From: a virus | Length of the DNA stretch: 64,000 nt | Direction: 5' to 3' (one strand) | IMG/VR virus record: IMGVR_UViG_3300025668_000745 | Location: 1-64,000 of that record | Part shown: in pieces, positions 38,019 to 64,000 of the stretch | Numbering within the stretch: position 1 is the first letter of the stretch | Layout: the number at the start of each line of letters is the position of its first letter | Notes under the pieces: generated by a model | Seen by the model: only the letters and a program-made list of their open reading frames with translations | What the model was told of the DNA's origin: nothing | Database searches by the model: none | Translations under genes and position numbers: made by a program

Positions 38019-38047
38019 TTGACAAACTGTATTTAAGACTGTATACT
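38019..38047 (+). promoter_or_regulatory. Near-consensus sigma70 promoter heading the enzyme cluster
   Basis: TTGACA (38019-38024)-N17-TATACT (38042-38047), then a GGAG RBS and the ATG at 38067. Confidence 0.8.
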
Positions 38048-46450: not shown

Positions 46451-47078
46451 TAAATGTTTTCAACTTTCAATCTCAACGTATTGTCAAGCTAAATGTCGTA
46501 GTTGCTTACGTACCAATAGCGAAACAGGTGAGCCGGAAGATTGGCTTACGCCTACACATATGAGCGTAGAAGCAGTACAAAATTTAGTATCTGGCGATTA
46601 TTTTAAAAAGAACAAACTGGGATATTTACTTCTTTGCGGAGAATTAGGTGATCCAATGATGCATCCTAATATAGATAAAATTTTAGATATTACTCTTGCT
46701 GTTGTTCCTCGAGTAGAACTTTCGACAAACGGCGGCCTGCGTCAACCAGAATGGTATGCAAAGACAGCGCAAAAATATGGAAGTCGTATTCATATTAAAT
46801 GGGCAATAGACGGCACTGACCATGAGACAAATTGGAAATATAGAGAAGGTGTTGACTATTATCGAGCAATGGATAATATGAAAGCATGGATTGAAAACGG
46901 TGGTAACGGTGATTGGCATTATTTAATTTTTGAGTGGAACTGGAAACAAGTAAAAACAGCTAAACAAATAGCTAAAGATATAGGGATTGAAATACTATTT
47001 AAAATAAACAACAGGCCGTTTGGGTTAATTGATCCACTTCATAAACGTAAAGTAATGGAGGAATTGACCAATGGCTAA
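46443..47078 (+). CDS. Radical SAM core domain only (type B, split gene part 1)
   Basis: CQAKCRSC, CGELGDP, TNGG and AIDG. Likely GTG start at 46443 behind GGAG (ORF track gives 46413). Confidence 0.88.
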   Translation: MSDKCFQLSISTYCQAKCRSCLRTNSETGEPEDWLTPTHMSVEAVQNLVSGDYFKKNKLGYLLLCGELGDPMMHPNIDKILDITLAVVPRVELSTNGGLRQPEWYAKTAQKYGSRIHIKWAIDGTDHETNWKYREGVDYYRAMDNMKAWIENGGNGDWHYLIFEWNWKQVKTAKQIAKDIGIEILFKINNRPFGLIDPLHKRKVMEELTNG

Positions 47079-47463
47079 ACAGCAAAAGATTATGTGTATG
47101 TTTCATGATGGCGCTCGAAGTGAATACGATATAACTGTTGACGGTAGAGTGTGGCCGTGTTGTAAATTTGTAAATGTAATAACAAAGATCGAAGCCGGAT
47201 TGCAAAAAAAAGGTGCTCTTGACGGAGACGACTATTTTTTTAAATTACAAAAAGATGACCCTAATTGGAATAGTTTAGAACATCATTCATTAGACGAAAT
47301 ATTAGATCATGATTATTTTTCTACATATGTAAACAATGAAGGATGGGAAAGTGGAAACACCAGCGTATTGTGTAAAAAACGATGTACGGCAAATATGCAC
47401 CAAGACGGAACTTATACATATGTAGCAGATACAAGTAACAAAATACATAAGAGGATAAAATAA
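47071..47463 (+). CDS. Stand-alone SPASM/twitch-like Fe-S domain (split gene part 2)
   Basis: C...DGRVWPCC...CKKRC matches the C-termini of 44655 and 55525. Has its own GGAGG RBS. Confidence 0.8.
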   Translation: MAKQQKIMCMFHDGARSEYDITVDGRVWPCCKFVNVITKIEAGLQKKGALDGDDYFFKLQKDDPNWNSLEHHSLDEILDHDYFSTYVNNEGWESGNTSVLCKKRCTANMHQDGTYTYVADTSNKIHKRIK

Positions 47464-47464
47464 A

Positions 47465-48214
47465 ATGATATATGTAGGCGGGGACAGTTATACATACGGA
47501 ATTGAATTAAATAATCCTCTGAAAGGTCGATATTCTTTTTTGATGCAACAAAAATTAAAAATGTCTGTAGTAAATGATTCTTGGGGCGGAGCAAGTAATG
47601 ACAGGATAGCCAGAAAATTTTTAGAGTTTATGAGCGGTCATAAAGTAAAACCTGACTTGGTGTTTATTATGTGGGCTCCTATTACAAGATCAGAGCAGTA
47701 TGCTCCTGAGGAGGATATGTGGGAGGAAAGAGACGGATTTAGACAAGTAAGATCGCCTGATATTTTTTTACCTGCCAAAGGTAAGCCGACAAAAAAACAA
47801 CTACACTGGCGCCGATCTCTTAGTCAGTTAAGTGCTACGCAAAAATGGTGGCTTAATATATTTGACCAAAAAGGAGCAATTGATAGTTATATTAGAAATA
47901 TAATGATAGTTCAAACTGTTTGTCGTGCAGGAAATATACCGTTTATTATGACTAATTGTAATTCTTCAATGACACTCAAACAACTTGATGATTTTGTAAG
48001 TCGTAATAGAAAAGTAGAAAACTACACACAACAACGAGTAAATCTCATTGATAGTAGTAACTGGTTATTTGATAAAACATGGTCTTTTGCTGAATGGGCA
48101 AAAGATAACGAATATCCAATAGGTCCACAACATCATCCGTTAGAGGAAGCACATATAAACTTTGCTAATATATTAACAGACAAAGTTAAGGAGAGATTAA
48201 ATGCCTCCGATTAA
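47465..48214 (+). CDS. SGNH hydrolase-like protein
   Basis: GGDSYTYG, GGASNDRI and QHHPLEEAH. Close paralogue of 45734. Confidence 0.75.
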   Translation: MIYVGGDSYTYGIELNNPLKGRYSFLMQQKLKMSVVNDSWGGASNDRIARKFLEFMSGHKVKPDLVFIMWAPITRSEQYAPEEDMWEERDGFRQVRSPDIFLPAKGKPTKKQLHWRRSLSQLSATQKWWLNIFDQKGAIDSYIRNIMIVQTVCRAGNIPFIMTNCNSSMTLKQLDDFVSRNRKVENYTQQRVNLIDSSNWLFDKTWSFAEWAKDNEYPIGPQHHPLEEAHINFANILTDKVKERLNASD

Positions 48215-49415
48215 ATGCTTCTTTGCAAAAAATGCAATTAATTACAAGCCCAATGATAGAATAACTGCGTGTCCCAGAGGTCACGGATCTTTGGCTAAAA
48301 TTAGTGACTCGGTAAAACCAAGTGATTTTTTAAATAACGAAGGATTTAGAAATCTTAGGAAAACTTTACAAGATGGTGAATGGGATACATCGCATTGTGA
48401 TACTTGTATGGAAAGAGAACAACGAAATATCACAAGTATGCGTCAAAACATTAACTCTGAATTTAATCCTAACACTAAAATTAATGCAAACGGCAAAGTG
48501 CGTTATAGAGAATTAAAATTTATAGAGCTTAGATTCAGTAATACTTGTAACTTATGCTGTTTGCATTGTGGCCCCGATTACAGCAGTCAATGGGCATCAC
48601 TTATAAAAAATAATCCCTTACAAAAAGATGACGTTGCTCATAATATTAGAGGATGGGTTAATCCGAGTAAAAATACAAATTGGACAAGTAAGCAAGTAAG
48701 AGACTTTGTAGAAGACTTAAATAGAAACTTTCCAAATGTTGAAAGATTTGATATTGCCGGCGGCGAGCCATTGTATCAAAAACAATTTTGGCTATTTTTA
48801 GATTTAATAAAAGACCATCCTAACATAAAACGTATGACTATTAGTATTACTTCTAACTTTAATGTTGACATTAATTATAAAGATTTTGCTAAAAAACTTA
48901 ATAAATTTAAATGTGCAAATGTGCGAATAAGTTTAGATGCTGGAAAAAACTTGTACGATTATTTTAGAGGCGGCAGCTGGGAAAAAGTAGAAGACAATAT
49001 AAAACAGTTTAACAAAACCAGAAGGAATACACAATTAGAGGTTACAAATACAATCGGAGTTCATCAAATTTTAGATCTTGAGGATGTAATTGTAAGTATG
49101 TTAGAACTTCCGGTTGACAAGTTACATCATAGTATTATACAATATCCTGACTATTTAAGTCCGCACGTATTTGAATCTAATAATCAAAGAGTCATTGATG
49201 AAATTGATAGGGCTAAAGCAGCAATTAATTGTTATAAAAGTGATATAAAATACGTTAGCGCTCATAGAATGATTAAATCACTTGAAAAGGAGTATAGTAA
49301 CTCAAAGTATAAATCTACTTTACTAAAAAGTTTTCAATACTATACTAATAAAATGGATAAAATTAAAAATACAAATTTTGAATCAGTGTTTGGATATAAA
49401 ATAGATGAACTCTAA
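48201..49415 (+). CDS. Radical SAM protein with N-terminal twitch-like domain (type A)
   Basis: N-terminal C...C...CDTC, then LRFSNTCNLCCLHC, AGGEP and SLDA. Confidence 0.9.
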   Translation: MPPIKCFFAKNAINYKPNDRITACPRGHGSLAKISDSVKPSDFLNNEGFRNLRKTLQDGEWDTSHCDTCMEREQRNITSMRQNINSEFNPNTKINANGKVRYRELKFIELRFSNTCNLCCLHCGPDYSSQWASLIKNNPLQKDDVAHNIRGWVNPSKNTNWTSKQVRDFVEDLNRNFPNVERFDIAGGEPLYQKQFWLFLDLIKDHPNIKRMTISITSNFNVDINYKDFAKKLNKFKCANVRISLDAGKNLYDYFRGGSWEKVEDNIKQFNKTRRNTQLEVTNTIGVHQILDLEDVIVSMLELPVDKLHHSIIQYPDYLSPHVFESNNQRVIDEIDRAKAAINCYKSDIKYVSAHRMIKSLEKEYSNSKYKSTLLKSFQYYTNKMDKIKNTNFESVFGYKIDEL

Positions 49416-50499
49416 CTATTGTGTCCTTCCTTTTGTTCATAGTTGTACAAATGTAGGCGGCAGAAATAAACCTTGCTGTAGATTTTCTGACCAAAGTTAT
49501 AACGATCAAGTTAGTCCGTTAGATTATTTCAATGGAGATAAGATAAATTTACTTAGAAATAAAATGCTTAACGGAGAAATAATAAAAGGATGCGACAAGT
49601 GTCACGCAGAAGAGTCGTTAGGTAAACAAAGTTATAGGCAACGGTCAAACAATCAATATAAAGAATATATTGACAAACAACCTACTTTAAAATTTATCGA
49701 AATTGGACTAAGCAATGCCTGTAATTTTGGATGTGTAACTTGTGATGCAGCATATAGCACAACTTGGTGGCAGGATATTGATGATGTAAATGCTATAGGC
49801 GCTAATAAAGCAAAACCTAATCAAAAAGTTGTATACACAGATAGTAAGTTTAATGACTTTTCTAATATAGATAGAATAAAAATATTAGGCGGCGAACCAT
49901 TTATGGAGCCGAGAAACTTAGAGTTTTTAAAAAAATGTAATTTAAAAAATATCGAATTAGAACTTGTTACAAATGGTAGCATTTTGCCAAACAATGAGTG
50001 GCAAGAAATATTGCAACAACTAAAATATGTAAACTTAGATATAAGTTTAGACGGCCATGGTGAAATTGCCGAGTATGTGCGTTATGGAACAAACTGGAAA
50101 AAATTAGAATCTAATATTAATTGGTGGAAACAGTGGTGGAGCAATAATAACAATATCACTATAAAAAGTCATTTTGTAGTTCATGCTCTAAATGCATTTG
50201 ATTTACATAATTATTTAGAATGGCAAAAAAAGTTTAAATGGAAAACTACGTTTGATATACTACAAATGCCAGAATATTTAAATATTAAAATTCTGCCAAC
50301 AGAAATGAAGAAAGAAATTTTAGAAAAGGTAGATATTAAGAATGTTACAAACTATTTAACTAAGCATATGAACATTTTTGACAAGGACCAGTGTAGTCTG
50401 CTAACTAACTATGTTAGTGTTTTAAATAAAAAACGTAATCATGACTTACAACAAATTAACAAACTAATGGATAGACTTAATGAAGCAACCAACAGATAG
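49405..50499 (+). CDS. Radical SAM protein with N-terminal twitch-like domain (type A)
   Basis: CVLPF...PCC...CDKC, CNFGCVTC, LGGEP, TNG and SLDG. Confidence 0.92.
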   Translation: MNSNYCVLPFVHSCTNVGGRNKPCCRFSDQSYNDQVSPLDYFNGDKINLLRNKMLNGEIIKGCDKCHAEESLGKQSYRQRSNNQYKEYIDKQPTLKFIEIGLSNACNFGCVTCDAAYSTTWWQDIDDVNAIGANKAKPNQKVVYTDSKFNDFSNIDRIKILGGEPFMEPRNLEFLKKCNLKNIELELVTNGSILPNNEWQEILQQLKYVNLDISLDGHGEIAEYVRYGTNWKKLESNINWWKQWWSNNNNITIKSHFVVHALNAFDLHNYLEWQKKFKWKTTFDILQMPEYLNIKILPTEMKKEILEKVDIKNVTNYLTKHMNIFDKDQCSLLTNYVSVLNKKRNHDLQQINKLMDRLNEATNR

Positions 50500-51724
50500 T
50501 AAAACTTTTTGTATTTTACCTTGGATACATGTGAATGGTAGTGTCGGCGGAGGTTATCGACCATGCTGTAATAGTGAAAGTTATTTTGATTTTAAAGACG
50601 ACAACAACAGTATCAAACAAGCGTTTGAAAGCAACAGTATGGACGAAATCCGCCAGTTTATGCAGCAGGAAAAAGAACATCCTGCATGTGAAGTTTGCTA
50701 TTCAAGAGAGCGCAATAATGGATTAAGTTTTCGACATACATACACAGTTGATAAGTTTAAAGAATTTGTAGATCCGAATGCAGACGAAAAAATAAAATAT
50801 TTAGACTTACGTTTTGATAACACTTGTAATCTTGCTTGTAGAATGTGTGATCCAAGTAGTAGTAATCAGTTATATAGTAGTATCGAATGGTATAGGCAAG
50901 AGGATAAACCACTACCAGAACACTGGAAAGGGTTTACTAATTATAAACAAAAAGATCAAACACAGATTAGTGCAAATCGTAAAGACTATGTAATAGAATT
51001 ATTACCGGGTATAGAAGTTTTAAAAGTAACTGGCGGCGAACCTTTTATTAGCAAGGATTTTTTAGAAGTATTAGATCATGCAATTGAAAATGATTATGCA
51101 AAAAATATTAGATTGCTAATAACTACAAATGGCACTAAGTTTGTAAAGGCAGTTTTACAACGTCTTAAACATTTTAAGGGCGTTGACATGAATGTAAGTG
51201 TTGACGGAACCAGTCATGTGTATGACTATGTTAGATATCCTTTTACATGGAATAAATGGAATGATAGATTCTTAGAGTTTTTAAATTTTGCTGATGAAAA
51301 CGAAATGTATAAAAACAAATACTTTCGAATTCGAACAAGTACAGTTGTTACAATGTACAATTGGTTGAATTGTCCAGAGCTATATACACATTTGAAATCT
51401 TATACTGAACAATTTCCGTGGTTAATTAATAAAAATTATATACCACGTATAGATTTTAATTTAAATCTGCGCCCAAAAGATAGTGAAATGTCGGCCAAGT
51501 GGTTACCTAATAACATTTTAGATAAGGGTTTAGAGTTATGGCAGCACACTGATTGTAGACAATATAAAGAATTTGAAAAGTATGTAGTTAATGCAAAAAA
51601 ACTAAGTTCAGACGATAAAAATCTTTATCGAGAAAAAATTAAATACACTACTACGACATTAGACAAACAGCGGAAACAAACTTTTGCTGTATTAGATAGC
51701 GAGATTGTTAAATGGCTAAAATAG
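50480..51724 (+). CDS. Radical SAM protein with N-terminal twitch-like domain (type A)
   Basis: CILPW...PCC...CEVC, CNLACRMC, TGGEP and SVDG. Confidence 0.92.
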   Translation: MKQPTDSKTFCILPWIHVNGSVGGGYRPCCNSESYFDFKDDNNSIKQAFESNSMDEIRQFMQQEKEHPACEVCYSRERNNGLSFRHTYTVDKFKEFVDPNADEKIKYLDLRFDNTCNLACRMCDPSSSNQLYSSIEWYRQEDKPLPEHWKGFTNYKQKDQTQISANRKDYVIELLPGIEVLKVTGGEPFISKDFLEVLDHAIENDYAKNIRLLITTNGTKFVKAVLQRLKHFKGVDMNVSVDGTSHVYDYVRYPFTWNKWNDRFLEFLNFADENEMYKNKYFRIRTSTVVTMYNWLNCPELYTHLKSYTEQFPWLINKNYIPRIDFNLNLRPKDSEMSAKWLPNNILDKGLELWQHTDCRQYKEFEKYVVNAKKLSSDDKNLYREKIKYTTTTLDKQRKQTFAVLDSEIVKWLK

Positions 51725-53115
51725 ATAAAAAAGAAGCAGAGCGTTTAGAAAGTTTAGTACCAAATAAAAAGTTTTGTCCTGCTCCCTTTATGCATACATA
51801 TATAAATTCAAATAATAGAGGATATAAACTTTGCTGTATGAGTCATATTGTTGGTCGTTGGGATACTGAACAAAGTCTTAAAGAACAACACGAAGAATTT
51901 TGGACTGGTGAAACTATGCAAAGTATTCGCCAAGATTTTCTTGATGGCAAAATGCCAGAATCGTGTGAGTGGTGGTGCGGTCGTTGGGAAAAAGAAGGTA
52001 TATATCATAAGAGTGATAGATTAGATTTTATAAAACGCTACGAATTAGAATTAAAAGCAGGATTTACAGAAATAAATTGGGACATAACTCATGGTACTCT
52101 TGAATTCCAGAAGCCAGTTGATATTGATTTACGACCAAGTAAAATGTGTAATTTAAAATGTCGTAGCTGTAATAGTCTTTGGTCCGATAAGATTGAACAA
52201 GAAGTACTTGCTAATCCAGAAATACAAGGATGGAGCCATTGGGACATGGTAACACAAAGCCCTAATGCTATGCGTAAAGCAAAACAGATTGATTACTCAG
52301 ATCCTAAGTTTGATGTTGTTAGTAATTTAGACTTTTCAAATGTATTTCGTTTAAAAATGAGCGGAGGGGAAACGTTAGTTGATCCAAGAGTTTATAATAT
52401 TATGAAAAAACTTGTTGATAGTGGCGAAGCAAAGAATGTACGTCTTCATCAAATTACAAACTGTACCAGCCTTCCAAGCAGAATATACGATTTACTGGCA
52501 CAGTTCAAAGAAGTTAGTTTCAATATTAGTGTAGATGGCGTAAAAGAAACAGATGAATTTTTACGTGACGGGACCAGATGGGATCGAAAACAAAAAGTAT
52601 TTGATAAAATCTTTACATTACCTAATTTAAAATGGGCTGGCATAATGCATGTCTTCCAACCTGTTAGCGCATTTCAAGTAAAGCGTAATGTAGAATGGTT
52701 TTTAGAAGGATACAGAAAATATACAAAACAACATAACGGTGTTACTTTTAATCCTATTGTTGATCCTTGGTATCTAAGTGTAAGTTGGTTAGATGAAGAT
52801 CATAAAGAGTACATAAGACAGCAAGTAAAAGAATGTATAACAGAATTTAATATGTGTAAACAAGAACAACAATGGTTTGATCTGTTACATAGTGAATTAG
52901 ATAAGACACAAACTGACGAGCGTCGAAAAAGATATGCAAATGATTATGTGCGAGCAGAGTTAGCATTGGATAAAATAAGAAATACAAGTTCTCTTACTAT
53001 AGAGCCTATGCTACAAAGATATTTTGATAGATACGATCCAAACAATGTTACACACGGTGACAAAACAGGAAGACCAGGAGCCCACTTTGATGGAAAACCA
53101 AAACCAACAGTCTAA
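51712..53115 (+). CDS. Radical SAM protein with N-terminal twitch-like domain (type A)
   Basis: CPAPF...LCC...CEWWC, CNLKCRSC, SGGE and SVDG. Confidence 0.92.
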   Translation: MAKIDKKEAERLESLVPNKKFCPAPFMHTYINSNNRGYKLCCMSHIVGRWDTEQSLKEQHEEFWTGETMQSIRQDFLDGKMPESCEWWCGRWEKEGIYHKSDRLDFIKRYELELKAGFTEINWDITHGTLEFQKPVDIDLRPSKMCNLKCRSCNSLWSDKIEQEVLANPEIQGWSHWDMVTQSPNAMRKAKQIDYSDPKFDVVSNLDFSNVFRLKMSGGETLVDPRVYNIMKKLVDSGEAKNVRLHQITNCTSLPSRIYDLLAQFKEVSFNISVDGVKETDEFLRDGTRWDRKQKVFDKIFTLPNLKWAGIMHVFQPVSAFQVKRNVEWFLEGYRKYTKQHNGVTFNPIVDPWYLSVSWLDEDHKEYIRQQVKECITEFNMCKQEQQWFDLLHSELDKTQTDERRKRYANDYVRAELALDKIRNTSSLTIEPMLQRYFDRYDPNNVTHGDKTGRPGAHFDGKPKPTV

Positions 53116-54349
53116 AAAGGTATTTTGTACAGCACCTTTTTTTAATTTATATTATAAGGGTAATAAGGATTATAATAAAATAATGCCTTGTTGTGAAGGT
53201 CGTTTGGGATCTTTAGGTAACTTTAGTCATTATGAAGAATATAGTAAAAGTAAATGGTTACGAAATATAAGAAAGAAAATGCTTAACAACGAACCTGCAG
53301 AAATATGTACTCGATGCGTATCTGTTGAAGAAGCTGGCGGGTTCAATGCAAGAGAACATTATAGAAATTTACTTGAAAAAATAGAATTTAGGACAAAGGA
53401 AAAAGTAGAGTTTAATTTTAAAAACGGGAACCAACACGGCCATCCGATGGCATTAGATTACAGAGGTAGTAATCTTTGTAATTTAAAATGCAGAATGTGT
53501 CATCAAGGAAGTAGTTCGGAAATTGCTAAAGAAATTAATAAAAATCAAGATCTGTATCGTCCAATGGGATACGGTAACGGAGTAAGTCATTTATATATTA
53601 ATAACAAACTGCCTAACGAGTTTATAGACGAGCTTAAATTAGACAACGTGTATAGATTTAAAATCTTAGGCGGCGAACCGTTAATGCAAGAAGATGTGTA
53701 CATAGGATTAGAAAAAATGGCACAGTTGCCACACAGGAAGGAAGTTGATATAAGTTTTACAACTAATGCAACTAACTTTCCAAAAAGATTCTATGACTTA
53801 ATTGGAAAATTTAGACGTATATTGATGCGAGTAAGTCTTGACGGTGTTGATGATGTATTTGAATATTGTAGATCAAACGGCAACTGGGACAAAATTATGA
53901 AAAATATAACTTCGTTGTCTGAGCGGGGGTATACACAAAATGAATTAGCTCTCGGTTTTAGTTTTGTTATACAATTTTATAATGTTTTTAGGATTTATGA
54001 TATAATGGAATGGTGTGCTAAATGGGAAGATGAACATCCTATAGAAACTTCGATATGGTCAATGCATACATTTTTTAGTCCAATTGAACAAAATCATTTA
54101 TCAACAGCAATGTGTACTACAGAAGATAGAGAATTTCTTAGACAAGAGCTTGACAGATTCCTTAAAGATTATGGACGTAGGTCCTGGTTTGATCGTGTAG
54201 AAAACATTATATTCAATTTTGATGAAAATAGAAATTTTGATAAAGAAAAAGCCAAAGAAACACTAATTGTATACAGTAAAAATTTAGATAAAATTAGAAA
54301 AACCAATTTACCAGATTTACATGAAAGATATAGCAAATATTATGAATGA
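53090..54349 (+). CDS. Radical SAM protein with N-terminal twitch-like domain (type A)
   Basis: CTAPF...PCC...CTRC, CNLKCRMC, LGGEP and SLDG. Likely ATG at 53090 behind AGGAG (ORF track gives 53024). Confidence 0.92.
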   Translation: MENQNQQSKKVFCTAPFFNLYYKGNKDYNKIMPCCEGRLGSLGNFSHYEEYSKSKWLRNIRKKMLNNEPAEICTRCVSVEEAGGFNAREHYRNLLEKIEFRTKEKVEFNFKNGNQHGHPMALDYRGSNLCNLKCRMCHQGSSSEIAKEINKNQDLYRPMGYGNGVSHLYINNKLPNEFIDELKLDNVYRFKILGGEPLMQEDVYIGLEKMAQLPHRKEVDISFTTNATNFPKRFYDLIGKFRRILMRVSLDGVDDVFEYCRSNGNWDKIMKNITSLSERGYTQNELALGFSFVIQFYNVFRIYDIMEWCAKWEDEHPIETSIWSMHTFFSPIEQNHLSTAMCTTEDREFLRQELDRFLKDYGRRSWFDRVENIIFNFDENRNFDKEKAKETLIVYSKNLDKIRKTNLPDLHERYSKYYE

Positions 54350-55532
54350 AACATACAATAGTATTAACCCCAGTAAAACAAATGAATTTATCATAACATG
54401 GGACACTGGCAAACGATGTAATTTTGACTGCGGCTATTGCGGCGATGACAGACATGACTTAGTGAGCAAGTTTCCAGACTTCGACGAGCTTGTTAAAGGT
54501 GTTGACTTTATTAAGAAATATTTAACAGTAATGATGCCGCATAGGAATAATCAAGTTGCTACACTTAGTTTAACAGGCGGAGAACCTACAGTTAATCCTA
54601 ATTTTTTACGATTAGCAACATATCTAAACGATCAATTTAAAGACTTTGAATACGAAGTTAAAACTATCTTAACTACAAACGGCAGTTTCCCTCAAAAAAA
54701 TATTCAACATTTGGTAGATAATTTTAGAGGAATCACTCTTAGTTATCATTGTGATAGTAAAGAAAAACTTAAAGAAAAAGTAAGAGAAAATATCCTTATT
54801 TTACATAAGAGTATGAAAAGTTTTAAAGTAAATCTTATGATGCATCCGTATGATAATTATTGGCAAGAATGTTTAGATTTAATCGATGTAATGGACGAGC
54901 ATAAAGTTAAGTATGTTCCAAGAGTAATTAATGGTTTAAAATATAGTCCAGAGCAAAGTGAATTTCTTACAAATTATTGGCAAAGGAAAAATAAAACTAA
55001 AACTGAAATAAAAGTAGAAAAAGTTGAATCAAAGCCACAAGAAGTTAAAAAAGAAAATGTCATACATCGAAAAATGAAAAAAGATGTTGAAAAAACATTT
55101 AACGAATTACGAAAAGATGAAACTAAAACTAATGTTATTCACGGCAGGCATTGTTGTAGTAAACACGAATTATCCTGCGGGTCAATGTGTGGATCTACGC
55201 AAAATCTTACATATGTTACCGATACAAGATTTCCAGAATGGTACTGCGGTGTAAATTGGTTCTTTTTACATCTCGAAAGTCAAACAGATCAAATATTTCA
55301 TCATCAAACCTGTCAAGCACAATACGGCAAAGGTAGGGGAGCAGTTGGTAAAATAAGTGAGTGGACAACTTTTACTGACAAAGTTGAAACTATGATAAAC
55401 ACAGGTAAAATGGAAACTATTCAATGTCCAAATAAAAAGTGTGGTTGCGGATTGTGTGCTACAAAGAGTATAGATAAAAATATGTTTAACAACTTAATGT
55501 CTAATCATATTAAGGGCGTAACATATGTCTGA
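54321..55532 (+). CDS. Radical SAM protein with C-terminal Cys cluster (type C)
   Basis: WDTGKRCNFDCGYC, TGGEPT, TNG; C-terminal CPNKKCGCGLC. The true start may be 54342. Confidence 0.9.
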   Translation: MKDIANIMNETYNSINPSKTNEFIITWDTGKRCNFDCGYCGDDRHDLVSKFPDFDELVKGVDFIKKYLTVMMPHRNNQVATLSLTGGEPTVNPNFLRLATYLNDQFKDFEYEVKTILTTNGSFPQKNIQHLVDNFRGITLSYHCDSKEKLKEKVRENILILHKSMKSFKVNLMMHPYDNYWQECLDLIDVMDEHKVKYVPRVINGLKYSPEQSEFLTNYWQRKNKTKTEIKVEKVESKPQEVKKENVIHRKMKKDVEKTFNELRKDETKTNVIHGRHCCSKHELSCGSMCGSTQNLTYVTDTRFPEWYCGVNWFFLHLESQTDQIFHHQTCQAQYGKGRGAVGKISEWTTFTDKVETMINTGKMETIQCPNKKCGCGLCATKSIDKNMFNNLMSNHIKGVTYV

Positions 55533-56751
55533 TAACAGTCTTGGTATTCATATCGAAATATCTTCTAACTGTAACAGCAGATGTTTAGACTGTGGACGAT
55601 TTGTCAAAGGTACAGACACTATTAATCCGTATGTTGATATTGGAAGTAAAGGCAATATCAGTATTTCGGCTATAGAAAATATTTTTGATAAATCTATATC
55701 AGAAACTGCACGATACGTAAATTTTACTGGAACTTATGGTGACTTTACCTTACATCCCAATGCATTAGATATAATGAAATGTATTTCTAATAAAATACAC
55801 CCGCACATAAAAAATAGAAATAAAAATGAGTTAACAGATAAAATAAGATTACTTGCTGAAACAAATGGCGGAGCAAGAGACGACGAATGGTGGCACAAGT
55901 TTGGTGACTACATCTTAAAATATTTTGATAAAGGTAGTTTAGTTATATTTGCATTAGACGGCACCGACAACGACACGCACCAAATGTACCGTCGAGGTGT
56001 TGACTTTGATACAGTGTTACGACATGCAAAAATTTTAATTGATAAAGGTATACGAACACGTTGGAGCTTTATAAGTTTTGCGCACAATGAACATCAACTC
56101 GACGAAGCAAAGCAAATGGCTAACGAAATAGGATTTACACAATTTCGAATTAGAAGATCAAGGCTACGCCATAATCCAAAAACAATTACAAATGTAAAAC
56201 AAAAAAAGAAAAACATAAGTGATAAACAAATATCAAAGTCTCAGATGTATACAGACTTAGTAAAAGAAAAAGAACATAGTGTTGTAAATGATGTTCCTAA
56301 GCCGTGGTATAAAAAGAAGATTGACGATTATGTAAATGAAACTTCTATTGAGTGCGAATGGAAAAAGAAACAACAAATTAGTATAGACTATACAGGAAGA
56401 GTTTGGCAATGTTGTTACTTTAGTAATTTTTATCATTATAACTTAAATCTGCCAGACTACGAACATGTGTCAAATAATGCATATGATTACAATTATAATA
56501 ACCAAAACTACGAACGGTTAAGTGTCTACGAGGATAGATACAATGACAAATGGAATAATATAAATCATAGAACACTTAGTAATATTTTAGGACACGATTT
56601 CTTCACAACAGATTTGCCTGATAGTTTTAATAACACTACAGAGCATAAACATAATCCAAGAATTGTACGATGTAGCAAATTTTGTGGAGAAAAGTCAAGA
56701 ACTTTAGATAAGAAGCTAACATCTATTAATAAAGAAAAAGAGGAACAATAA
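55525..56751 (+). CDS. Radical SAM protein with C-terminal SPASM/twitch-like domain (type B)
   Basis: CNSRCLDC, GTYGD, TNGG, FALDG; C-terminal GRVWQCC...CSKFC. Confidence 0.9.
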   Translation: MSDNSLGIHIEISSNCNSRCLDCGRFVKGTDTINPYVDIGSKGNISISAIENIFDKSISETARYVNFTGTYGDFTLHPNALDIMKCISNKIHPHIKNRNKNELTDKIRLLAETNGGARDDEWWHKFGDYILKYFDKGSLVIFALDGTDNDTHQMYRRGVDFDTVLRHAKILIDKGIRTRWSFISFAHNEHQLDEAKQMANEIGFTQFRIRRSRLRHNPKTITNVKQKKKNISDKQISKSQMYTDLVKEKEHSVVNDVPKPWYKKKIDDYVNETSIECEWKKKQQISIDYTGRVWQCCYFSNFYHYNLNLPDYEHVSNNAYDYNYNNQNYERLSVYEDRYNDKWNNINHRTLSNILGHDFFTTDLPDSFNNTTEHKHNPRIVRCSKFCGEKSRTLDKKLTSINKEKEEQ

Positions 56752-58158
56752 ATGACTTACAAATCGCCGTCAGACACATTTTGCTTACTGCCTTGGGTAC
56801 ATTTAAGTACAAGACCGGACGGCAGTATGCGAGTATGTTGCACAGCTAATGCAAGTAGTGTTGGCGCAACCAATGACAAAGAGCACGGCGGCCAAGTTGG
56901 CATCCTTAAAACTGAAGACGGTAAGCCTAATAATTTAAATGTTAGTGATTTTGAATCAGCATGGAACAGCACATACATGAAAAATGTGCGTAAGCAGATG
57001 CTTAATGGTGAAAAGCCACCCAGTTGTATAAAATGCTTTAAAGAAGAAGCGGCTGGTCACAATTCAAAGCGTATGTGGGAAACACATTATTGGAGCCAGA
57101 GAGTTGATGTTGATAAAATTATTGCTGACACAAAAGAAGACGGATCAGTTCCACCTCAACTTGCGTACATTGATTTACGCTTTGGTACTAAGTGTCAGTT
57201 AGCATGTGTTATGTGTAGCCCACATGATAGTTCAGGTTGGATTAAAGATTATAAAGCAATTTTTCCTGCTGTAGAAAACGCCAGTCTTAAAGAAACAATG
57301 CAATGGCAAGACAAAGGAAGTTATAATGGTAGTAGTTATAACTGGCATAAACAAAATCCTACTTTCTGGAAACAGTTTTATGAACAAATGCCAAGTATGC
57401 AGCAGATCTATTTTGCAGGCGGCGAAAGTCTTATTATTGAAGAACACTATGAAATACTTGAACACGCAATTAAAATGGGATATGCTAAAGATTTAGAGCT
57501 ACGCTATAATTCAAACGGTGTTGAATGGCGTGAGGATTTATTTGATTTATGGAAAGAATTTAAACTTGTACGATTCCATTATTCAGTAGACAGTATACAC
57601 GAAATGAATGACTATATACGTTATCCAAGTGTATGGAGTAGAACAAGTGAAGTCTTTCATATATTAGATAACGAAACAAGTAATAACGTAGAAGTTACAG
57701 TTGCATGTGCAGTGCAAGCTCTTAATATATATTATTTGCCCGACTTTATAAAATGGAAACTTAACGAAGGATTTAAAAAGATTAATATGTGGCCTTTTGG
57801 CGCCGGCGGTATTAACTATCACTTTGTATATCATCCACCGCATTTAAATGTAAAAGTTTTACCCAAATGGTTTAAAGAAGAATGCCGTAAGAAGTATGAA
57901 GAATTTTATCCGTGGTGGGAAGCTAATTGGGAAAAGGGTGTACCGAGCTGGCACAAAGGCAAAGTTGATTACGACAAATGGCGCAGTGCAAGTTATGGTA
58001 TTGATAGATTAGAAGGAATGTTAACGTTTATGGAAAGCGAAGACTGGAGTGTGCGACTTCCTGAAATGAAAGAATTTTTAGATTTATGTGACACACAACG
58101 CGGCATAACTTTTGCAGAAACTTTTCCTGAAATGAAGGATATATTTAAGGATGTCTAA
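56752..58158 (+). CDS. Radical SAM protein with N-terminal twitch-like domain (type A)
   Basis: CLLPW...RVCC...CIKC, CQLACVMC and AGGE. Confidence 0.92.
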   Translation: MTYKSPSDTFCLLPWVHLSTRPDGSMRVCCTANASSVGATNDKEHGGQVGILKTEDGKPNNLNVSDFESAWNSTYMKNVRKQMLNGEKPPSCIKCFKEEAAGHNSKRMWETHYWSQRVDVDKIIADTKEDGSVPPQLAYIDLRFGTKCQLACVMCSPHDSSGWIKDYKAIFPAVENASLKETMQWQDKGSYNGSSYNWHKQNPTFWKQFYEQMPSMQQIYFAGGESLIIEEHYEILEHAIKMGYAKDLELRYNSNGVEWREDLFDLWKEFKLVRFHYSVDSIHEMNDYIRYPSVWSRTSEVFHILDNETSNNVEVTVACAVQALNIYYLPDFIKWKLNEGFKKINMWPFGAGGINYHFVYHPPHLNVKVLPKWFKEECRKKYEEFYPWWEANWEKGVPSWHKGKVDYDKWRSASYGIDRLEGMLTFMESEDWSVRLPEMKEFLDLCDTQRGITFAETFPEMKDIFKDV

Positions 58159-59473
58159 CACCTTTTGTCCTATTCCCTGGATATTTCAAGCAGTACGTAA
58201 TAACGGCGATATTAGAGTATGTTGTCAAGCAAACGTAACTAAAAATCAAGGTGTTGTTAGACACGAAGACGGCAAACCGTATAATGCCGGAAGAGATGAT
58301 ATGTCAAAAGCACGTAATGCAACTCTTATGAAAGAAATACGGAAAAATATGCTTGACGGAGTATGGAGTGAAGAGTGTACTCGGTGTATGAACGAAGAAG
58401 CAAGTGGGTTAAACAGTCGAAGACAGTACGAATTAGAAAATTGGAAATTTGATTTAGACGAAGCAGCATCTATAACTGAGTTAGACGGATCTATATCTCA
58501 ACCTCCAATAAGTTATTATGATTTACGCTTTGGTAATATGTGCAACCTTGCATGTCGTATGTGTGGCCCAACTGACAGCCATACCTGGTATGAACAGTGG
58601 ATAGATTATCACGGCGGCGACGGATATGATGATACTCATGGTAGAGTTACGTTAAAGAAAAATGAAAAAGGAAGATTATATACCAACGATTATGATTGGC
58701 ACAACAGCGAAAGTTTTTGGGAACAAATAGAAAAAAATATTTCAAATATTGACCATGTATATATGGCCGGCGGCGAGCCAATGATGATTGAACGTCATTA
58801 CGAGTTTTTACAAAAGTGTATAGACAGCGGTTATGCAAAAAAAATTATTATTGAATATAATACAAATATGACAACTTTGCCTGATCGAGTATTAAAAATG
58901 TGGACATATTTTAAACAAGTAAGAGTTGGCGCAAGTATAGACGGAATGGGTGATGTTGTTGAATATCAACGTTGGCCACTAAAATGGAAAAGTGCATATC
59001 GTAATTTAAAAAAACTTGATGACTATGCGTATAACAATAAAAATATTATTGCTTGGATAGCATTTACAGTTACAGCATACAACGTATGGCATACACCAGA
59101 ATTTATGTGGTGGAAATTAAAAGAAAGCGGATTTAAAGCAATTAACAGCACTAAGAAACGTCCTATTATTACACATCATGTTGCTCACGGACCAAAAAGA
59201 GCAAACATTAAGATTTTGACACCTGAGCTTAAAATAAAATTACAAGAATATTATAACGAATGGATTGATCGTGTTAATGGCGATAACGAAATTACACCTT
59301 TACAAAAAGAAAAATTTGCTGATATATTAGCAAGTATTTTAAAATTCTCCAATAGTGCAGATATGAGTGATCAAATACCGCAGTTTATAAAATTTACTAA
59401 ATATCTCGACGATACTCGTAAGCAAGATATATTATCAATTGCGCCAGAATACAAGGATTTATTTGATGGCTGA
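58151..59473 (+). CDS. Radical SAM protein with N-terminal twitch-like domain (type A)
   Basis: CPIPW...RVCC...CTRC, CNLACRMC, AGGEP and SIDG. Confidence 0.92.
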   Translation: MSNTFCPIPWIFQAVRNNGDIRVCCQANVTKNQGVVRHEDGKPYNAGRDDMSKARNATLMKEIRKNMLDGVWSEECTRCMNEEASGLNSRRQYELENWKFDLDEAASITELDGSISQPPISYYDLRFGNMCNLACRMCGPTDSHTWYEQWIDYHGGDGYDDTHGRVTLKKNEKGRLYTNDYDWHNSESFWEQIEKNISNIDHVYMAGGEPMMIERHYEFLQKCIDSGYAKKIIIEYNTNMTTLPDRVLKMWTYFKQVRVGASIDGMGDVVEYQRWPLKWKSAYRNLKKLDDYAYNNKNIIAWIAFTVTAYNVWHTPEFMWWKLKESGFKAINSTKKRPIITHHVAHGPKRANIKILTPELKIKLQEYYNEWIDRVNGDNEITPLQKEKFADILASILKFSNSADMSDQIPQFIKFTKYLDDTRKQDILSIAPEYKDLFDG

Positions 59474-60473
59474 CTTTCTACCAATGATGTATCAAGATAG
59501 TCCAATAACTAAAGTACTCCAAGAATCAACAACTTTTAACTTTGCTACTACAGTATCAGATTATTGTAATTACTCGTGTCATTACTGCTGGCCTGGAGCA
59601 CATGCTGGAACAATGAAACTTCCGCCACCTACAGATATATTCAAGCATAATATTAAAAAATATTGCAAATGGGTTAAAAAACATAACCCAAAAATAGAAA
59701 ATTTTTATTTTCATTATAGCGGCGGCGAGCCTTCTATGTTCCCCCATATGTCTGATTACCTAAAGTTTGTTGCTGATGAAATACCTAATGGGTATAGCGG
59801 ATTGCAAACAAACGGATCTCGAACAATTAGATGGTGGGAGAAAAATTTACCAAATCTTCATTCATTATCGATAAGTGTACATGTTGGTAGCGCAGATCCT
59901 AATCATTTAATAGAACTTGCAAAACTTTGTGAAGAACACAAAGTAGATTACAATCTAAATGTTGCAGCCGATCTTCGAAATAAAAAGAAAGTATTAAAAT
60001 TTTTAGAATTATTTTCTAAAAATAATCTACAAACGGGATTTCATCTAATACAAGAAATACACGAAACCTGGGACGATAATGATCTACACACTAATAAAGA
60101 GTTTTATGAGGCGTGTGATAGTTTTACAGCGCATTATCAAGATCGTAATAGTAATTCAGAGTTACAACGTAAAGTAACATTTGAAACAGAAGATTCAAAG
60201 AAACCAATTAAGTTTGATGAAATGCAGAGAAGTTCAATGAGGGGAGATTGGACTGGATATGATTGTAATACACCGGCACAATTTATGATGATTAATTCAC
60301 AAGGTCATTTATATATATCTTGTGGTAATAAAATTGGACCACTAATTAAAAAAATTGATTTATTTAAATCTAAATTATCAGTTATTCCTGCACAACCTTG
60401 GGTGCGTTGTACAACTGGATATTGTAAGTGTACAGGCTTATGGCATGCCAATAAACAATTAGTAATAAAGTAG
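59466..60473 (+). CDS. Radical SAM protein with C-terminal Cys cluster (type C)
   Basis: CNYSCHYC, SGGEP, TNGSR; C-terminal G..C...C...CTTGYCKC. Likely ATG at 59466 (ORF track gives 59439). Confidence 0.9.
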   Translation: MADFLPMMYQDSPITKVLQESTTFNFATTVSDYCNYSCHYCWPGAHAGTMKLPPPTDIFKHNIKKYCKWVKKHNPKIENFYFHYSGGEPSMFPHMSDYLKFVADEIPNGYSGLQTNGSRTIRWWEKNLPNLHSLSISVHVGSADPNHLIELAKLCEEHKVDYNLNVAADLRNKKKVLKFLELFSKNNLQTGFHLIQEIHETWDDNDLHTNKEFYEACDSFTAHYQDRNSNSELQRKVTFETEDSKKPIKFDEMQRSSMRGDWTGYDCNTPAQFMMINSQGHLYISCGNKIGPLIKKIDLFKSKLSVIPAQPWVRCTTGYCKCTGLWHANKQLVIK

Positions 60474-60502
60474 TTGACTTTTGCAAACAAAGAATGTAAT
60501 AT
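60474..60502 (+). promoter_or_regulatory. Internal sigma70-type promoter, probably giving a leaderless mRNA
   Basis: TTGACT (60474-60479)-N17-TAATAT (60497-60502). The ATG at 60509 is 6 nt later and has no Shine-Dalgarno sequence. Confidence 0.55.
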
Positions 60503-60508
60503 ATTAAT

Positions 60509-61627
60509 ATGAGCGAAGATTTAAAATGGTCAAATTATGACTTTACTAAAATACCTTTTGACGACATTGTCTCTGTGGGGCAACGTACTCTGCTGTATCG
60601 TGATATATTTACTGTATCATGGTTACTTGGACGTTTCTGCAACTACAAGTGTTCCTACTGTTGGCCCTATGCCCGAAGTGACCGTAAAGATCACAGACCT
60701 ACCGAGCTCTGCTTGCGAACAGTGGATGAAATTAAACGTCAAGCCAGAGACAACGGCTTCAATTCTTTCCACTTCTCCTTGTCAGGAGGAGAGCCTACTT
60801 TCCATCCTGGATACTTGGACATACTAAAGCACTTAGCTGACGATGTAGATAATACTAACTATACAAGTGTACACATGACATCAAACTGTAGTCGCAACAT
60901 GCGTTGGTTTGAACAGTATGTAGAAGCAGTTAAACCATTTCATAGAGCAAGCATTACAGCAAGCCTGCACACAGAACACTTAAACACAAAGGAGAAGATG
61001 CAGGACTTTGCAGATAAACTAATCCTGTGTCAAGAACACGATGTACAAGTTACAATTAATATGGTCATGGTGCCGGACTGGTTTGAACGTGATTGGGAAA
61101 ATGCACTGTTCTTTCACGAACAAGGTATCAACGTTACTCTTAAACCACAATCAGACCCTACTGCTTCTAAAGTTGTTGACGGATACAAACCGGAAGACCT
61201 AAAACGTTTACATAACGGTATGCCGCAACGTGCATATACAGAAAGCAAACGTAAGTGGGAAGGTAGACCAAAACCTGCCTTTCAAATTCCACAAGGAGCA
61301 GACGGGAAACTTGATGCAAGTGTGCCTTGGCATTTTCAAGTAGAGTTTAAAGACTCAACAGGTAAAAAATGGTTCATGGATCAAGCAGAAAGATTTAATG
61401 CATTTAATTTTAATAAGTTTGAAGGATGGCGATGTAATGCAGGGTATCAAGGAATTATTATACGTGAACCGGACGGTTCAGTAAAGCGTAGTTATAGCTG
61501 TCATGATACGCCTCTTGGTAACATAGAAACAGGATTTAAGTTATTTGACAAACCTATGCCATGTATAACTAAATCCTGTGTAAGTAGTGCAGATAGTAAA
61601 ATACCTAAGACTAAAATTATTTCTTAA
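60509..61627 (+). CDS. Radical SAM protein with C-terminal Cys cluster (type C)
   Basis: WLLGRFCNYKCSYC, SGGEPT; C-terminal GWRCNAG...C...CITKSC. Confidence 0.92.
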   Translation: MSEDLKWSNYDFTKIPFDDIVSVGQRTLLYRDIFTVSWLLGRFCNYKCSYCWPYARSDRKDHRPTELCLRTVDEIKRQARDNGFNSFHFSLSGGEPTFHPGYLDILKHLADDVDNTNYTSVHMTSNCSRNMRWFEQYVEAVKPFHRASITASLHTEHLNTKEKMQDFADKLILCQEHDVQVTINMVMVPDWFERDWENALFFHEQGINVTLKPQSDPTASKVVDGYKPEDLKRLHNGMPQRAYTESKRKWEGRPKPAFQIPQGADGKLDASVPWHFQVEFKDSTGKKWFMDQAERFNAFNFNKFEGWRCNAGYQGIIIREPDGSVKRSYSCHDTPLGNIETGFKLFDKPMPCITKSCVSSADSKIPKTKIIS

Positions 61628-62249
61628 ATACTACCGGAATTTCTTCTTTTATACGTCTTTCAATCTTTACATTTTCTGTATGATGCTCACGTCTTTGTCT
61701 TGTGCTATCTTTAAATCCGATACCCATTAAAAGTATACTTGGATTATCAAACCCTAAAATTTCTTCAACTTCTGATTTATCGTAACATGCACAACACCCT
61801 GTTTGATAACCTAACATTGTAGCAATAACATTTAAATAGCCAGCAGCAATACCTACAGCCATTTCTCTATCACGTCTTAACATGTTGTTATCTGATTCGT
61901 CATTATTTTTAAACTTTTTGTTATATTGTGCAGACATATCATTTGCTTCAAATGCAACAAGTAAGTTTGCAAGTGTTTGTGGATTTGTACATTCTACTCT
62001 ATCTCCTGTTTCAGGATCAGCATATCCTAATCCTAATGAATTGGCATGTACTTGTTCTATAATATTTCTGTCTGTAATAAAGTGGGCTTTGTAAAACGCA
62101 AAGTTTTGTTTGCTCGGACAGTTAGTAACAGCGTGTACTAAAACATCAATATCCTCTTCTGGAATACTTTTACTAAGATCCCAATTTCGTTGTGTATGTT
62201 GGCTTTTGATTACTGATTTTTTAATCTCGTTGCGAAAGTCTAATTCCAT
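61617..62249 (-). CDS. Nitroreductase-family (FMN-binding) protein
   Basis: QRNWD...IPEEDI......PSKQN, GIAAG......LGY.TGCC and GIG motifs. Confidence 0.8.
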   Translation of the reverse strand: MELDFRNEIKKSVIKSQHTQRNWDLSKSIPEEDIDVLVHAVTNCPSKQNFAFYKAHFITDRNIIEQVHANSLGLGYADPETGDRVECTNPQTLANLLVAFEANDMSAQYNKKFKNNDESDNNMLRRDREMAVGIAAGYLNVIATMLGYQTGCCACYDKSEVEEILGFDNPSILLMGIGFKDSTRQRREHHTENVKIERRIKEEIPVVFKK

Positions 62250-63086: not shown

Positions 63087-63087
63087 T

Positions 63088-63795: not shown

Positions 63796-64000
63796 CATCT
63801 AATTTTTTATTTTTGTAGTCGTTTTCTTTTATTAAGAATTTTTCTATATCGTTTGATGTATAAGATCCTGTTCCTATAAGACTCCTTAAACTTTTAAGCC
63901 AAATACATACATTATTCTTACATGCTTCTGCATGTTCGCCTTTAGAATTTAATACTATTTGTATTGCTTCGTCGACATATTTTCTAAATTCAATAGGTAA
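63764..64000 (-). CDS. 3' end of a gene truncated by the window edge (possibly another radical SAM protein)
   Basis: Open frame from 64000 reads LPIEFRKYVDEAIQ...LLLDQIKL to a TAA stop at 63764-63766. The LP.EF..Y start loosely resembles type-A C-terminal helices. Confidence 0.55.
   Translation of the reverse strand, partial: LPIEFRKYVDEAIQIVLNSKGEHAEACKNNVCIWLKSLRSLIGTGSYTSNDIEKFLIKENDYKNKKLDVSLLLDQIKL

Follow-up and report, generated by a model that had tools for sequence, protein, structure and literature searches.

Why should a virus carry eleven radical S-adenosylmethionine (radical SAM) genes in a row? The question is posed by positions 48201-61627 of a 64,000-nucleotide stretch of DNA (the window), which comprises bases 1-64000 of the 84,643-base IMG/VR virus record IMGVR_UViG_3300025668_000745, a record whose completeness CheckV puts at about 24%. 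Radical SAM enzymes perform some of biology's hardest chemistry, and to our knowledge characterised pathways make do with one or a handful; this phage invests in 15 radical SAM genes, and five long records of its relatives hold 8-19 matches each to the radical SAM family PF04055. Judged from its gene content, the source is an uncultured marine T4-like phage. The answer favoured here, tentatively and at somewhat less than an even chance, is that the array forms the core of a hypervariable island of tailoring enzymes in the tail-fibre region, acting putatively on a glycoconjugate.

The array must first be shown to exist. It was assembled from a metagenome and its paralogues are very divergent, as might be expected of a chimera of several strains or of a graveyard of functionless, decaying duplicates. 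An earlier note on this DNA, made from the sequence alone, had named misassembly of several strains as the finding that would overturn its view, and that possibility is now refuted. A second IMG/VR record (L001) has an identical gene order and 99-100% protein identity over the array, with only 59439-60473 falling to 89%. At least half of the sampled 31-mers of positions 50000-59900 occur in 18 public sequencing runs, of which three are possibly the source; the other 15 come from ten named studies and one further study, span 2011-2022 and are all marine, eight of the studies, from 2017, being possibly one campaign. Colinear contigs of 8-11 kb were obtained from three independent runs in other studies, covering 46000-57210 (X4, with 83 differences), 46452-54432 (X7) and 46000-55330 (X8). 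Moreover, every gene retains CxxxCxxC and an open frame, and the ratios of nonsynonymous to synonymous substitution (dN/dS) lie between 0.05 and 0.37. It is thus improbable in the extreme that the array is a chimera or a collection of relics, and the impression that no gene in it has decayed holds.

The eleven open reading frames (ORFs), 344-468 residues long, all lie on the + strand, overlap or abut their neighbors, and contain one CxxxCxxC each, as the earlier note had read them. The profile scans that it proposed find PF04055 in 10 of 10 array proteins scanned, nine of them above the 29.5-bit cut-off and the tenth, 51712-53115, at just 22.8 bits. The remaining protein, 60509-61627, lay outside the Pfam scan; it matches radical SAM models in NCBIfam, has 4824 protein matches at E<=1e-5, and PF04055 is present in all 120 of its homologues listed. 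The earlier count of eleven is too low for the record as a whole, where 15 radical SAM genes are found, 11 of them in 48201-61627, and all 15 have the CxxxCxxC motif.

These genes fall into three groups by blastp. Group A consists of the genes that start at 48201, 49405, 50480, 51712, 53024, 56752 and 58151, together with 63764-64981 on the - strand (22-33% pairwise identity). Group B consists of 44655, 55525 and a gene that is split between 46413 and 47071 (28-30% identity; 28% over 318 residues for 55525 with 44655), and group C of 54321, 59439 and 60509 (25-29%). The fifteenth gene, 67036-68544, shows a weak likeness to B12-binding class B enzymes. The division of the array itself into seven, one and three genes, first drawn from the positions of cysteines, agrees with the scores on the family model NF033640, with Pfam SPASM matches and with the blastp grouping, and the paralogues are as divergent as they had appeared (22-34% identity by blastp).

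The unusual feature of group A is that its auxiliary cysteine domain precedes the radical SAM core. NF033640 is the NCBIfam entry N_Twi_rSAM, twitch domain-containing radical SAM protein, with a cut-off of 170 bits. Since all seven group A genes of the array exceed that cut-off, with 225.8-418 bits over the full length of the model, the architecture is not new but belongs to an already curated family. The four other array genes score at most 43.8 bits or have no match and are non-members, and 63764-64981, with 162.7 bits, falls just under the cut-off. The phage proteins share with the family the N-terminal cysteine domain and the CxxxCxxC core that follows it; in the phage island they differ in being arrayed beside two other radical SAM architectures. 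The family name carries no function, and no assayed member was found in print. Literature searches on N-terminal twitch or N-terminal SPASM radical SAM proteins and on phage- or virus-encoded radical SAM proteins as such returned no paper, and the titles returned for twitch domain-containing radical SAM proteins concern other enzymes.

The identity of the N-terminal domain was a structural claim of the earlier note, and it is borne out by three comparisons. Pfam SPASM matches residues 11-95 of 56752-58158 with 21.7 bits. A profile of 70 N-terminal domains, searched against solved structures, has a sole significant match, residues 163-246 of BtrN (E 1.9e-6), and all four conserved cysteine columns align with BtrN cysteines that are presumably the ligands of its auxiliary cluster. 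Finally, hhalign pairs the group A N-terminal profile with the group B C-terminal profile at 95.5% probability (E 1.4e-8). When 113 diverse proteins of group A are aligned, Cys11, Cys92 and Cys95 (numbering of 56752-58158) are invariant, Cys29 is found in 111 (98%) and Cys30 in 91, and 92-183 residues precede CxxxCxxC. Because the SPASM, BtrN and group B matches agree, the domain is best described as a permuted twitch domain: on this profile evidence, group A bears at its N-terminus what group B and BtrN bear at the C-terminus. The C-terminal auxiliary domain of characterised SPASM/twitch enzymes is accordingly present in group B and not in the seven group A proteins. BtrN is the 2-deoxy-scyllo-inosamine dehydrogenase (PDB 4M7S/4M7T), the founding twitch-domain radical SAM enzyme, with a sugar-type substrate. 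Its likeness to group A extends to the radical SAM core; the order of the two domains is reversed, and the phage proteins exceed BtrN in length by about 150-200 residues. The C-terminal third of the 113 proteins is their most diverged part, with 16% mean pairwise identity versus 24-26% elsewhere.

Group C has a cysteine cluster of another kind. Four C-terminal cysteine columns are invariant (alignment A4), and the C-terminal part has no match among solved structures. Comparisons of this domain with twitch are not significant: hhalign gives a probability of 5% against the twitch profile, a hidden Markov model of the domain has no match at i-E<0.01 among the 113 sequences of group A, and piecewise alignments to the N-termini of bacterial N_Twi proteins carry no weight at the level of the domain.

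The family to which group A belongs is very large. A library clustered at 50% identity holds 10,121 representatives at E<=1e-30, and the nearest clusters in the Atlas are 88-100% viral. A large protein database holds 3833 relatives of 56752-58158 at E<=1e-5, the best 120 of which are 81-90% identical to it.

A possible route to the permuted order is suggested by the split gene of group B. Its core ORF (221 residues) and its twitch-like ORF (130 residues), which together span 46413-47463, overlap by 8 nucleotides. By blastp the core is 29-30% identical to 44655 and 55525, and the second ORF shares 25-27% identity with the C-terminal portion of 55525. The same split recurs in four related loci, which represent two distinct sequences (L064/L065 and L068/L070) at 32-37% identity and in which a separate ORF of 92-104 residues follows the core ORF. 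Because the two-ORF layout has been kept at this divergence, the split looks functional and a sequencing error is unlikely. In the library, about 30 of the best 150 matches (P0241-P0272) are proteins of 750-1400 residues with two or three full N_Twi matches; they represent tandem copies that have fused, or else gene calls that read through. The conserved split and the double-length fusions (~800 residues) together suggest, speculatively, that a twitch module became detached in a tandem array and was fused to the start of the next gene.

How the array varies among phages was examined in relatives of one gene. A scan of IMG/VR with 56752-58158 gave 299 confirmed relatives, and the 80 best loci were retained. 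Synteny was compared in the 39 loci whose 10-kb flanks are complete, and clustering was done on 40, the window being added. Since the loci were picked as nearest to one anchor gene, the sample is biased toward relatives. Across the 39 loci, recurrent orthologues are found for 40628 (55-66% identical), 42228 (33-48%), 44655 (60-91%), 56752 (84-92%, and 99% in L001) and 60509 (79-91%). The three radical SAM genes 44655, 56752 and 60509, with the non-radical SAM genes 40628 and 42228, are thus conserved anchors; the 44655 type is present in 37 of the 40 loci and the 60509 type in 26. Between the anchors, the radical SAM genes of the relatives are only 22-57% identical to any gene of the window, and 9 of the 11 array genes are common only to the near-identical L001, although 58151 has a counterpart of at least 60% identity in L061 as well. 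Within 10 kb on either side of the anchor, each of the 39 loci has 6-12 radical SAM genes (median 10). The 378 radical SAM ORFs of the 40 loci form 143 single-linkage clusters at 60% identity, 91 of which occur in a single locus.

Two observations bear on how such a collection arises. The seven group A copies of the window span the whole of a FastTree phylogeny of the 113 proteins, and for five of the seven the nearest paralogue from the window itself ranks only 8th-19th; just 51712 and 53024 are close, with weak support. Because the copies are scattered in this way, the array was assembled from old lineages and not by recent local duplication. Second, a cassette has been caught in the act of coming or going. 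A contig from run X7 joins position 59465 to 60440 and is near-identical over 945 letters before the joint and 309 after it; the junction falls in a 5-nucleotide ATGGC repeat (microhomology), 59439-60473 alone is removed, and the upstream gene gains five residues. A contig from run X8 retains the gene. Single cassettes are therefore gained or lost in nearly identical genomes, and the gene concerned is the one that stands apart from its 99-100% identical neighbors in L001. The same 59465-60440 joint is seen in run X4, one side of it comprising only 25 letters.

The earlier note had proposed that diversifying selection maintains the array, as in an arms race, and had suggested a comparison of dN/dS and of copy number among related phages. 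At the level of sequence the proposal finds no support. The estimates (Nei-Gojobori method, NG86) are rough, since dS is close to saturation in many of the comparisons and these are not mutually independent, but none is near 1: medians against orthologues are 0.053 for 56752 (79 pairs, 65 with finite dS), 0.071 for 60509, 0.13 for 44655, 0.15 for 40628 and 0.22 for 58151. For the non-anchor cassettes, sampled as 150 pairs per group among pairs 70-97% identical, the medians are 0.087 in group A, 0.098 in B and 0.087 in C, with a maximum of 0.367; pairs with dS<1 give 0.081 (68 pairs), 0.080 (28) and 0.032 (3). Each cassette type is under purifying selection, gene-wide. The far greater divergence of the C-terminal third might be taken as a mark of positive selection, but gene-wide ratios this low in anchors and cassettes alike, and the fact that the paralogues represent ancient lineages common to many phages and not recent local duplicates, make it very unlikely that the sequences are kept diverse in that manner. 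What survives of the arms-race idea concerns gene content, in that related phages differ by the exchange, gain and loss of cassettes.

On what might these enzymes act? The earlier note had offered a surface or a DNA modification. Nothing in the analysis points to DNA; a surface modification is plausible from the genes that accompany the family. A survey of 301 Bacteroidota genomes gave three with a match above the cut-off, one of them a probable phage-containing metagenome-assembled genome (MAG), and three bacterial loci were examined for context. In G152, four N_Twi genes lie beside a GDSL-like gene, a fusion of a methyltransferase with a family 2 glycosyltransferase (GT2) and a GT22-like gene; RecQ and a tRNA synthetase are encoded on the same contig. 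The G284 locus has two N_Twi-like genes below the cut-off, and with them a B12-radical SAM gene, a methyltransferase, a polysaccharide deacetylase, a GT11-like gene, three GDSL-like genes and a carbamoyltransferase. In G080 (L093, contig C2, about 1.21-1.22 Mb), two N_Twi genes are found with five PhyH dioxygenases, a WelO5-type halogenase, a CMAS-like methyltransferase and a dehalogenase-like Fe-S protein; this locus has the look of a tailoring cluster of its own, so far uncharacterised. By their annotated neighbors, two of the three loci (G152 and G284) are of carbohydrate type, and GDSL-like genes are partners in the phage island too, where four SGNH-like ORFs alternate with the first radical SAM genes. 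Tailoring of a glycoconjugate is favored because N_Twi genes keep this company of GDSL-like, glycosyltransferase, deacetylase and carbamoyltransferase genes. BtrN is also the only solved twitch protein that the N-terminal profile retrieves. Furthermore, in the cultured Vibrio phage K566 (L096, 255 kb) four ORFs at 161.5-168.3 kb match the group A profile, three of them annotated as radical SAM, and a gene annotated as PagP, for the acylation of lipid A, is found within a few kilobases.

Several observations weigh against a glycan. The sole glycosyltransferase match in the window is that of 40628-42244 to Pfam Glycos_transf_2, which falls just below threshold (23.2 bits versus a cut-off of 23.3, E 7.1e-5); this protein has no match in the PDB, PHROGs or NCBIfam, and its Atlas clusters are unnamed and viral, one of them (at score 0.87) annotated GT2 on 13% of its members, a mere lead. 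All four SGNH-like assignments are under family cut-offs, and no gene for nucleotide-sugar synthesis was found in the island. The ORFs in 38404-40082 and 42228-43127 are without a match in Pfam, PHROGs, NCBIfam or the PDB, where 39228-40082 has matches at chance level only. Among non-radical SAM proteins of the island, PHROGs matches 0 of 10, and NCBIfam none of nine apart from one match at chance level. The best solved matches to the radical SAM core include the peptide maturases SkfB, CteB and YydG; an Asp/Asn beta-hydroxylase-type and two TauD-type genes farther along the island could act on proteins or lipids; and the G080 locus looks like one for small-molecule or lipid tailoring. The bacterial contexts come from three genomes of one phylum, and the promoter described below is assigned from consensus matches alone, such sites being at chance level overall. 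It is chiefly the single sub-threshold glycosyltransferase match and the peptide maturases among the core relatives that hold confidence in a glycan substrate below even.

The same core matches raise the possibility that the enzymes are maturases of the kind that acts on ribosomally synthesised and post-translationally modified peptides (RiPPs), here directed at virion proteins such as the tail fibers or a 4998-residue protein encoded just upstream, on which they would place cross-links, epimerisations or other modifications. The position of the island between tail-fiber genes would suit such a role, and its Asp/Asn beta-hydroxylase-type, nitroreductase and methyltransferase genes belong to classes seen in peptide pathways. 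SkfB, CteB and YydG, which like anSME are radical SAM/SPASM peptide maturases, resemble the phage proteins in more than the core, as they also have auxiliary cysteine-ligated clusters. However, the main phage group carries its auxiliary domain at the N-terminus, and its profile finds the twitch domain of BtrN and that of no peptide maturase. Pfam scans of 10 array proteins at E<=0.1 gave no match of the PqqD or RiPP recognition element (RRE) type, and a Cys-His-x-Ser/RGRR virion-protein motif is missing from all six frames of the record. The largest non-coding gap in 48201-61627 is 35 nucleotides, so that no precursor ORF fits inside the array, a distant or unannotated precursor being still possible; the RRE/PqqD domain and nearby precursor gene of a RiPP maturase system are thus not seen within it. 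With two of three bacterial contexts of polysaccharide type, peptide or protein maturation appears unlikely, though it is the most serious competitor.

A lipid or a small metabolite, such as an envelope lipid or the acyl chains of lipid A, is a less probable substrate still. It would account for the dioxygenases, halogenase and CMAS-like methyltransferase of G080, for the fatty-acid desaturase at the end of the island, for the Asp_Arg_Hydrox-type gene within it (the family presumably includes the lipid A hydroxylase LpxO), and for the PagP gene near the K566 array. The lipid enzyme GDGT-MAS is among the core matches, and 67036-68544 is weakly like B12-radical SAM lipid and P-methyltransferases, far under their cut-offs. 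Yet each of these points is weak or isolated, both remaining bacterial loci are of carbohydrate type, and the island yielded no gene for an acyl carrier or for lipid synthesis.

The surroundings of the array are those of a T4-like host-recognition region. PHROGs matches upstream include a T4-type SbcCD-like nuclease, a gp55-like late sigma factor, baseplate hub and wedge proteins, and tail and tail-fiber proteins; on the far side of the island, in the 84.6-kb record, lies a tail-fiber gene with an Mtd_N domain. PHROGs and Pfam matches and the comparison of loci thus place a hypervariable island among the tail-fiber genes of a T4-like phage, as in a host-recognition cluster. The 4998-residue ORF (15968-30964) stands between the baseplate wedge gene and the tail-fiber genes. 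The five long relatives are 165-257 kb in length and 46-72% complete by CheckV, and their genomes are therefore probably much larger than those of pelagimyophages. Cultured phages offer few relatives: megablast of the array against them gave no match, and tblastn with 56752-58158 only three distant records. A single locus with an 85%-identical copy of 56752-58158 belongs to a Crocinitomicaceae MAG (L082/G001) in which N_Twi genes exceed the family cut-off on five contigs. Because these are probably binned phage contigs, they are at best a weak hint of the host, and no host is proposed.

The island may be transcribed as one long operon from a host-type promoter. Its candidate promoter, at 38019-38047, is the best of 103 promoter-like sites, with 11 of 12 consensus positions matched, and in 8 of 12 related loci both hexamers are kept in the same gap while the spacers have diverged. 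The total of such sites is at the chance level (103 versus 99.8 expected), as is roughly that of terminator-like sites (88 versus 78.6 expected). No copy of the late-type motif ATAAATA occurs within 38012-61627, and the terminator scan found no + strand terminator-like site within the array. This combination of a conserved sigma-70-like site, no late motif and no terminator is what argues for a single operon. None of the sequencing runs that match the array is listed as RNA, two being possibly so. Elsewhere in the window ATAAATA occurs at 4935, 12474, 30961, 35335 and 35352 on the + strand and at 966, 4930, 13484, 29404 and 62277 on the - strand, sitting about 20 nucleotides upstream of structural genes on both strands, a late-promoter-like placement. 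Of the full T4 octamer TATAAATA the window has 2 copies versus 16 expected, a strong depletion, and neither copy lies upstream of any island gene. A second sigma-70-like site, in the only gap of the array, is absent from the sites listed in the promoter scan, 28 weaker sites being unlisted. The only sizeable gap of the island, 43802-44021 (220 nucleotides), has no ORF of at least 90 residues and contains a short hairpin at 43816-43830. The features of the island are collected in the table.

Table. Features of the island and its borders, in window coordinates. Remarks on identity of at least 60% (>=60%) refer to a comparison with 39 other loci.
Feature	Position	Strand	Remarks
Candidate sigma-70-like promoter, TTGACA-17-TATACT	38019..38047	+	In the 55-nt gap from the last tail-fiber-like gene to the first island gene
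Conserved island gene, two-repeat protein	40628..42244	+	Sub-threshold GT2 match
Conserved island gene, no family match	42228..43127	+	Orthologues 33-48% identical in most related loci
SGNH/GDSL-like	43127..43801	+	Lipase_GDSL_2 E 6.4e-4, 20.7 bits, sub-threshold; GDS near N-terminus
Possible SGNH-like paralogue, GCS replacing GDS	44022..44654	+	From sequence only; no family match
Group B radical SAM, C-terminal twitch/SPASM-like; anchor	44655..45737	+	CxxxCxxC at residue 18; PF04055 27.3 bits
SGNH/GDSL-like paralogue	45734..46450	+	N-terminal GGDSY; weak DUF6071 match only
Group B radical SAM core, 221 aa, first half of split gene	46413..47078	+	CxxxCxxC at residue 24
Free twitch/SPASM-like ORF, 130 aa, second half of split gene	47071..47463	+	blastp; member of alignment A3
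SGNH/GDSL-like paralogue	47465..48214	+	Lipase_GDSL_2 E 3e-4, 21.8 bits, sub-threshold
Group A cassette	48201..49415	+	NF033640 225.8 bits; >=60% identity only in L001
Group A cassette	49405..50499	+	NF033640 255.9 bits; only in L001
Group A cassette	50480..51724	+	NF033640 257.8 bits; only in L001
Group A cassette	51712..53115	+	NF033640 234.4 bits; only in L001
Group A cassette	53024..54349	+	NF033640 245.9 bits; only in L001
Group C radical SAM, other C-terminal Cys cluster	54321..55532	+	PF04055 38.8 bits
Group B radical SAM, C-terminal twitch/SPASM-like	55525..56751	+	PF04055 40.1 bits; SPASM 16.6 bits, residues 277-309, sub-threshold
Group A conserved anchor	56752..58158	+	NF033640 418 bits; SPASM match at residues 11-95
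Group A cassette	58151..59473	+	NF033640 373.2 bits; >=60% identity in L001 and L061 only
Group C cassette, present or absent in nature	59439..60473	+	PF04055 44.7 bits
35-nt gap with second sigma-70-like site, TTGACT-17-TAATAT	60474..60508	+	Read from the sequence
Group C conserved anchor	60509..61627	+	NCBIfam radical SAM models
Nitroreductase family	61617..62249	-	PF00881 34.7 bits; preceded by ATAAATA (-) at 62277
Eighth N_Twi-type radical SAM, 3' end; runs to 64981	63764..64000	-	NF033640 162.7 bits; CxxxCxxC at residue 126

The true start of 53024-54349 is probably downstream of the TTG at its listed start, since the NF033640 match begins at residue 32.

Beyond the array the record encodes the nitroreductase, two FMN_red proteins, a redoxin, a methyltransferase and a fatty-acid desaturase, as well as two TauD-type dioxygenases and an Asp/Asn beta-hydroxylase-type protein. 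The two NADPH-dependent FMN reductase-type genes and the redoxin gene (65833-66471, 68534-68941 and 73329-73967) lie past the window but within the island, and with the nitroreductase they may provide a supply of electrons, or protection, for the Fe-S enzymes. The Asp/Asn beta-hydroxylase-type gene is flanked by the two TauD-type genes at 69779-72830, also past the window; together with 62334-63795, which has no family match, this stretch makes up a second block of oxidative enzymes.

If a glycoconjugate is indeed the substrate, the island might work as follows. The radical SAM enzymes would be made from the host-type promoter and would act in the cytoplasm, where each would use its CxxxCxxC cluster and SAM to remove a single hydrogen atom from one unit of a precursor that bears sugars. 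The twitch cluster, ligated wholly by cysteines, could then take up the electron in the manner of BtrN, and the products would be keto sugars, epimerised sugars or sugars processed further. The island's SGNH-like proteins, methyltransferase, 2-oxoglutarate oxygenases and flavin reductases would add or support further steps, and the divergent C-terminal third of each enzyme would set the position that is attacked. Swapping a cassette would thereby alter the structure of the glycoconjugate displayed on the virion or on the envelope of the infected cell.

Phages that alter surface glycans by enzymes of their own are well known from serotype conversion, in which Gtr and Oac modify the O antigen, and from the glycosylated virions of mycobacteriophages. 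The Gtr/Oac-type systems share the logic proposed here, in that gene content differs between related phages, but they use glycosyl- and acetyltransferases and not radical SAM arrays. Closer parallels have been described in marine phages. According to Nishimura et al. (2017; PMC5332604), the T4-like marine genome TARA_ERS488813_N000010 has 12 radical SAM genes and a gene for an A-type Fe-S carrier. It resembles the present phage in type and in its double-digit number of radical SAM genes, and differs in the carrier: PF01521 is found neither in the 84.6-kb record nor in the five long relatives, which is not evidence of absence because all six records are incomplete. Zaragoza-Solas et al. (2020; PMC7029224) describe a hypervariable host-recognition cluster of tail fibers and glycosyltransferases in pelagimyophages, with VrlC and the neck protein gp14 at its borders, and cassettes of radical SAM genes that differ between two similar genomes in the same island as the glycosyltransferases. 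The cluster of pelagimyophages and cyanomyophages, as represented there, shares with the present locus a T4-like marine phage and a hypervariable island among tail-fiber genes. Radical SAM genes are also listed as prevalent in some marine viromes (PMC7150976).

The array is thus an instance of a recurrent and functionally unexplored kind of phage locus, and T4-like marine phages rich in radical SAM genes are already in print. The present analysis adds the anatomy of the three architectures, the sequence proof of the permutation and the anchor-plus-cassette structure with its numbers, and likewise the purifying selection on each cassette type, the natural deletion of a single cassette, the conserved split gene and the bacterial contexts. 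A bolder combination of these elements is conceivable but rather doubtful: that a swappable library of radical SAM enzymes (>140 types in 40 loci, from a family of >10,000 clusters at 50% identity) rewrites a surface glycoconjugate as a combinatorial toolbox, every cassette catalysing a C-H-activating step of its own, and that its N-terminal twitch domain arose within such tandem arrays by shifts of gene boundaries, of which the split gene and the double fusions of about 800 residues would be surviving intermediates. The anchors 44655, 56752 and 60509 provide a concrete starting point for the study of such loci, and the Vibrio phages K566 and K567, with their small arrays, a possible cultured system. 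If tailoring of surface glycoconjugates proves to be the function, these islands would constitute a large untapped source of sugar-editing radical enzymes, and would explain how abundant marine phages vary what is displayed on themselves or on their infected hosts.

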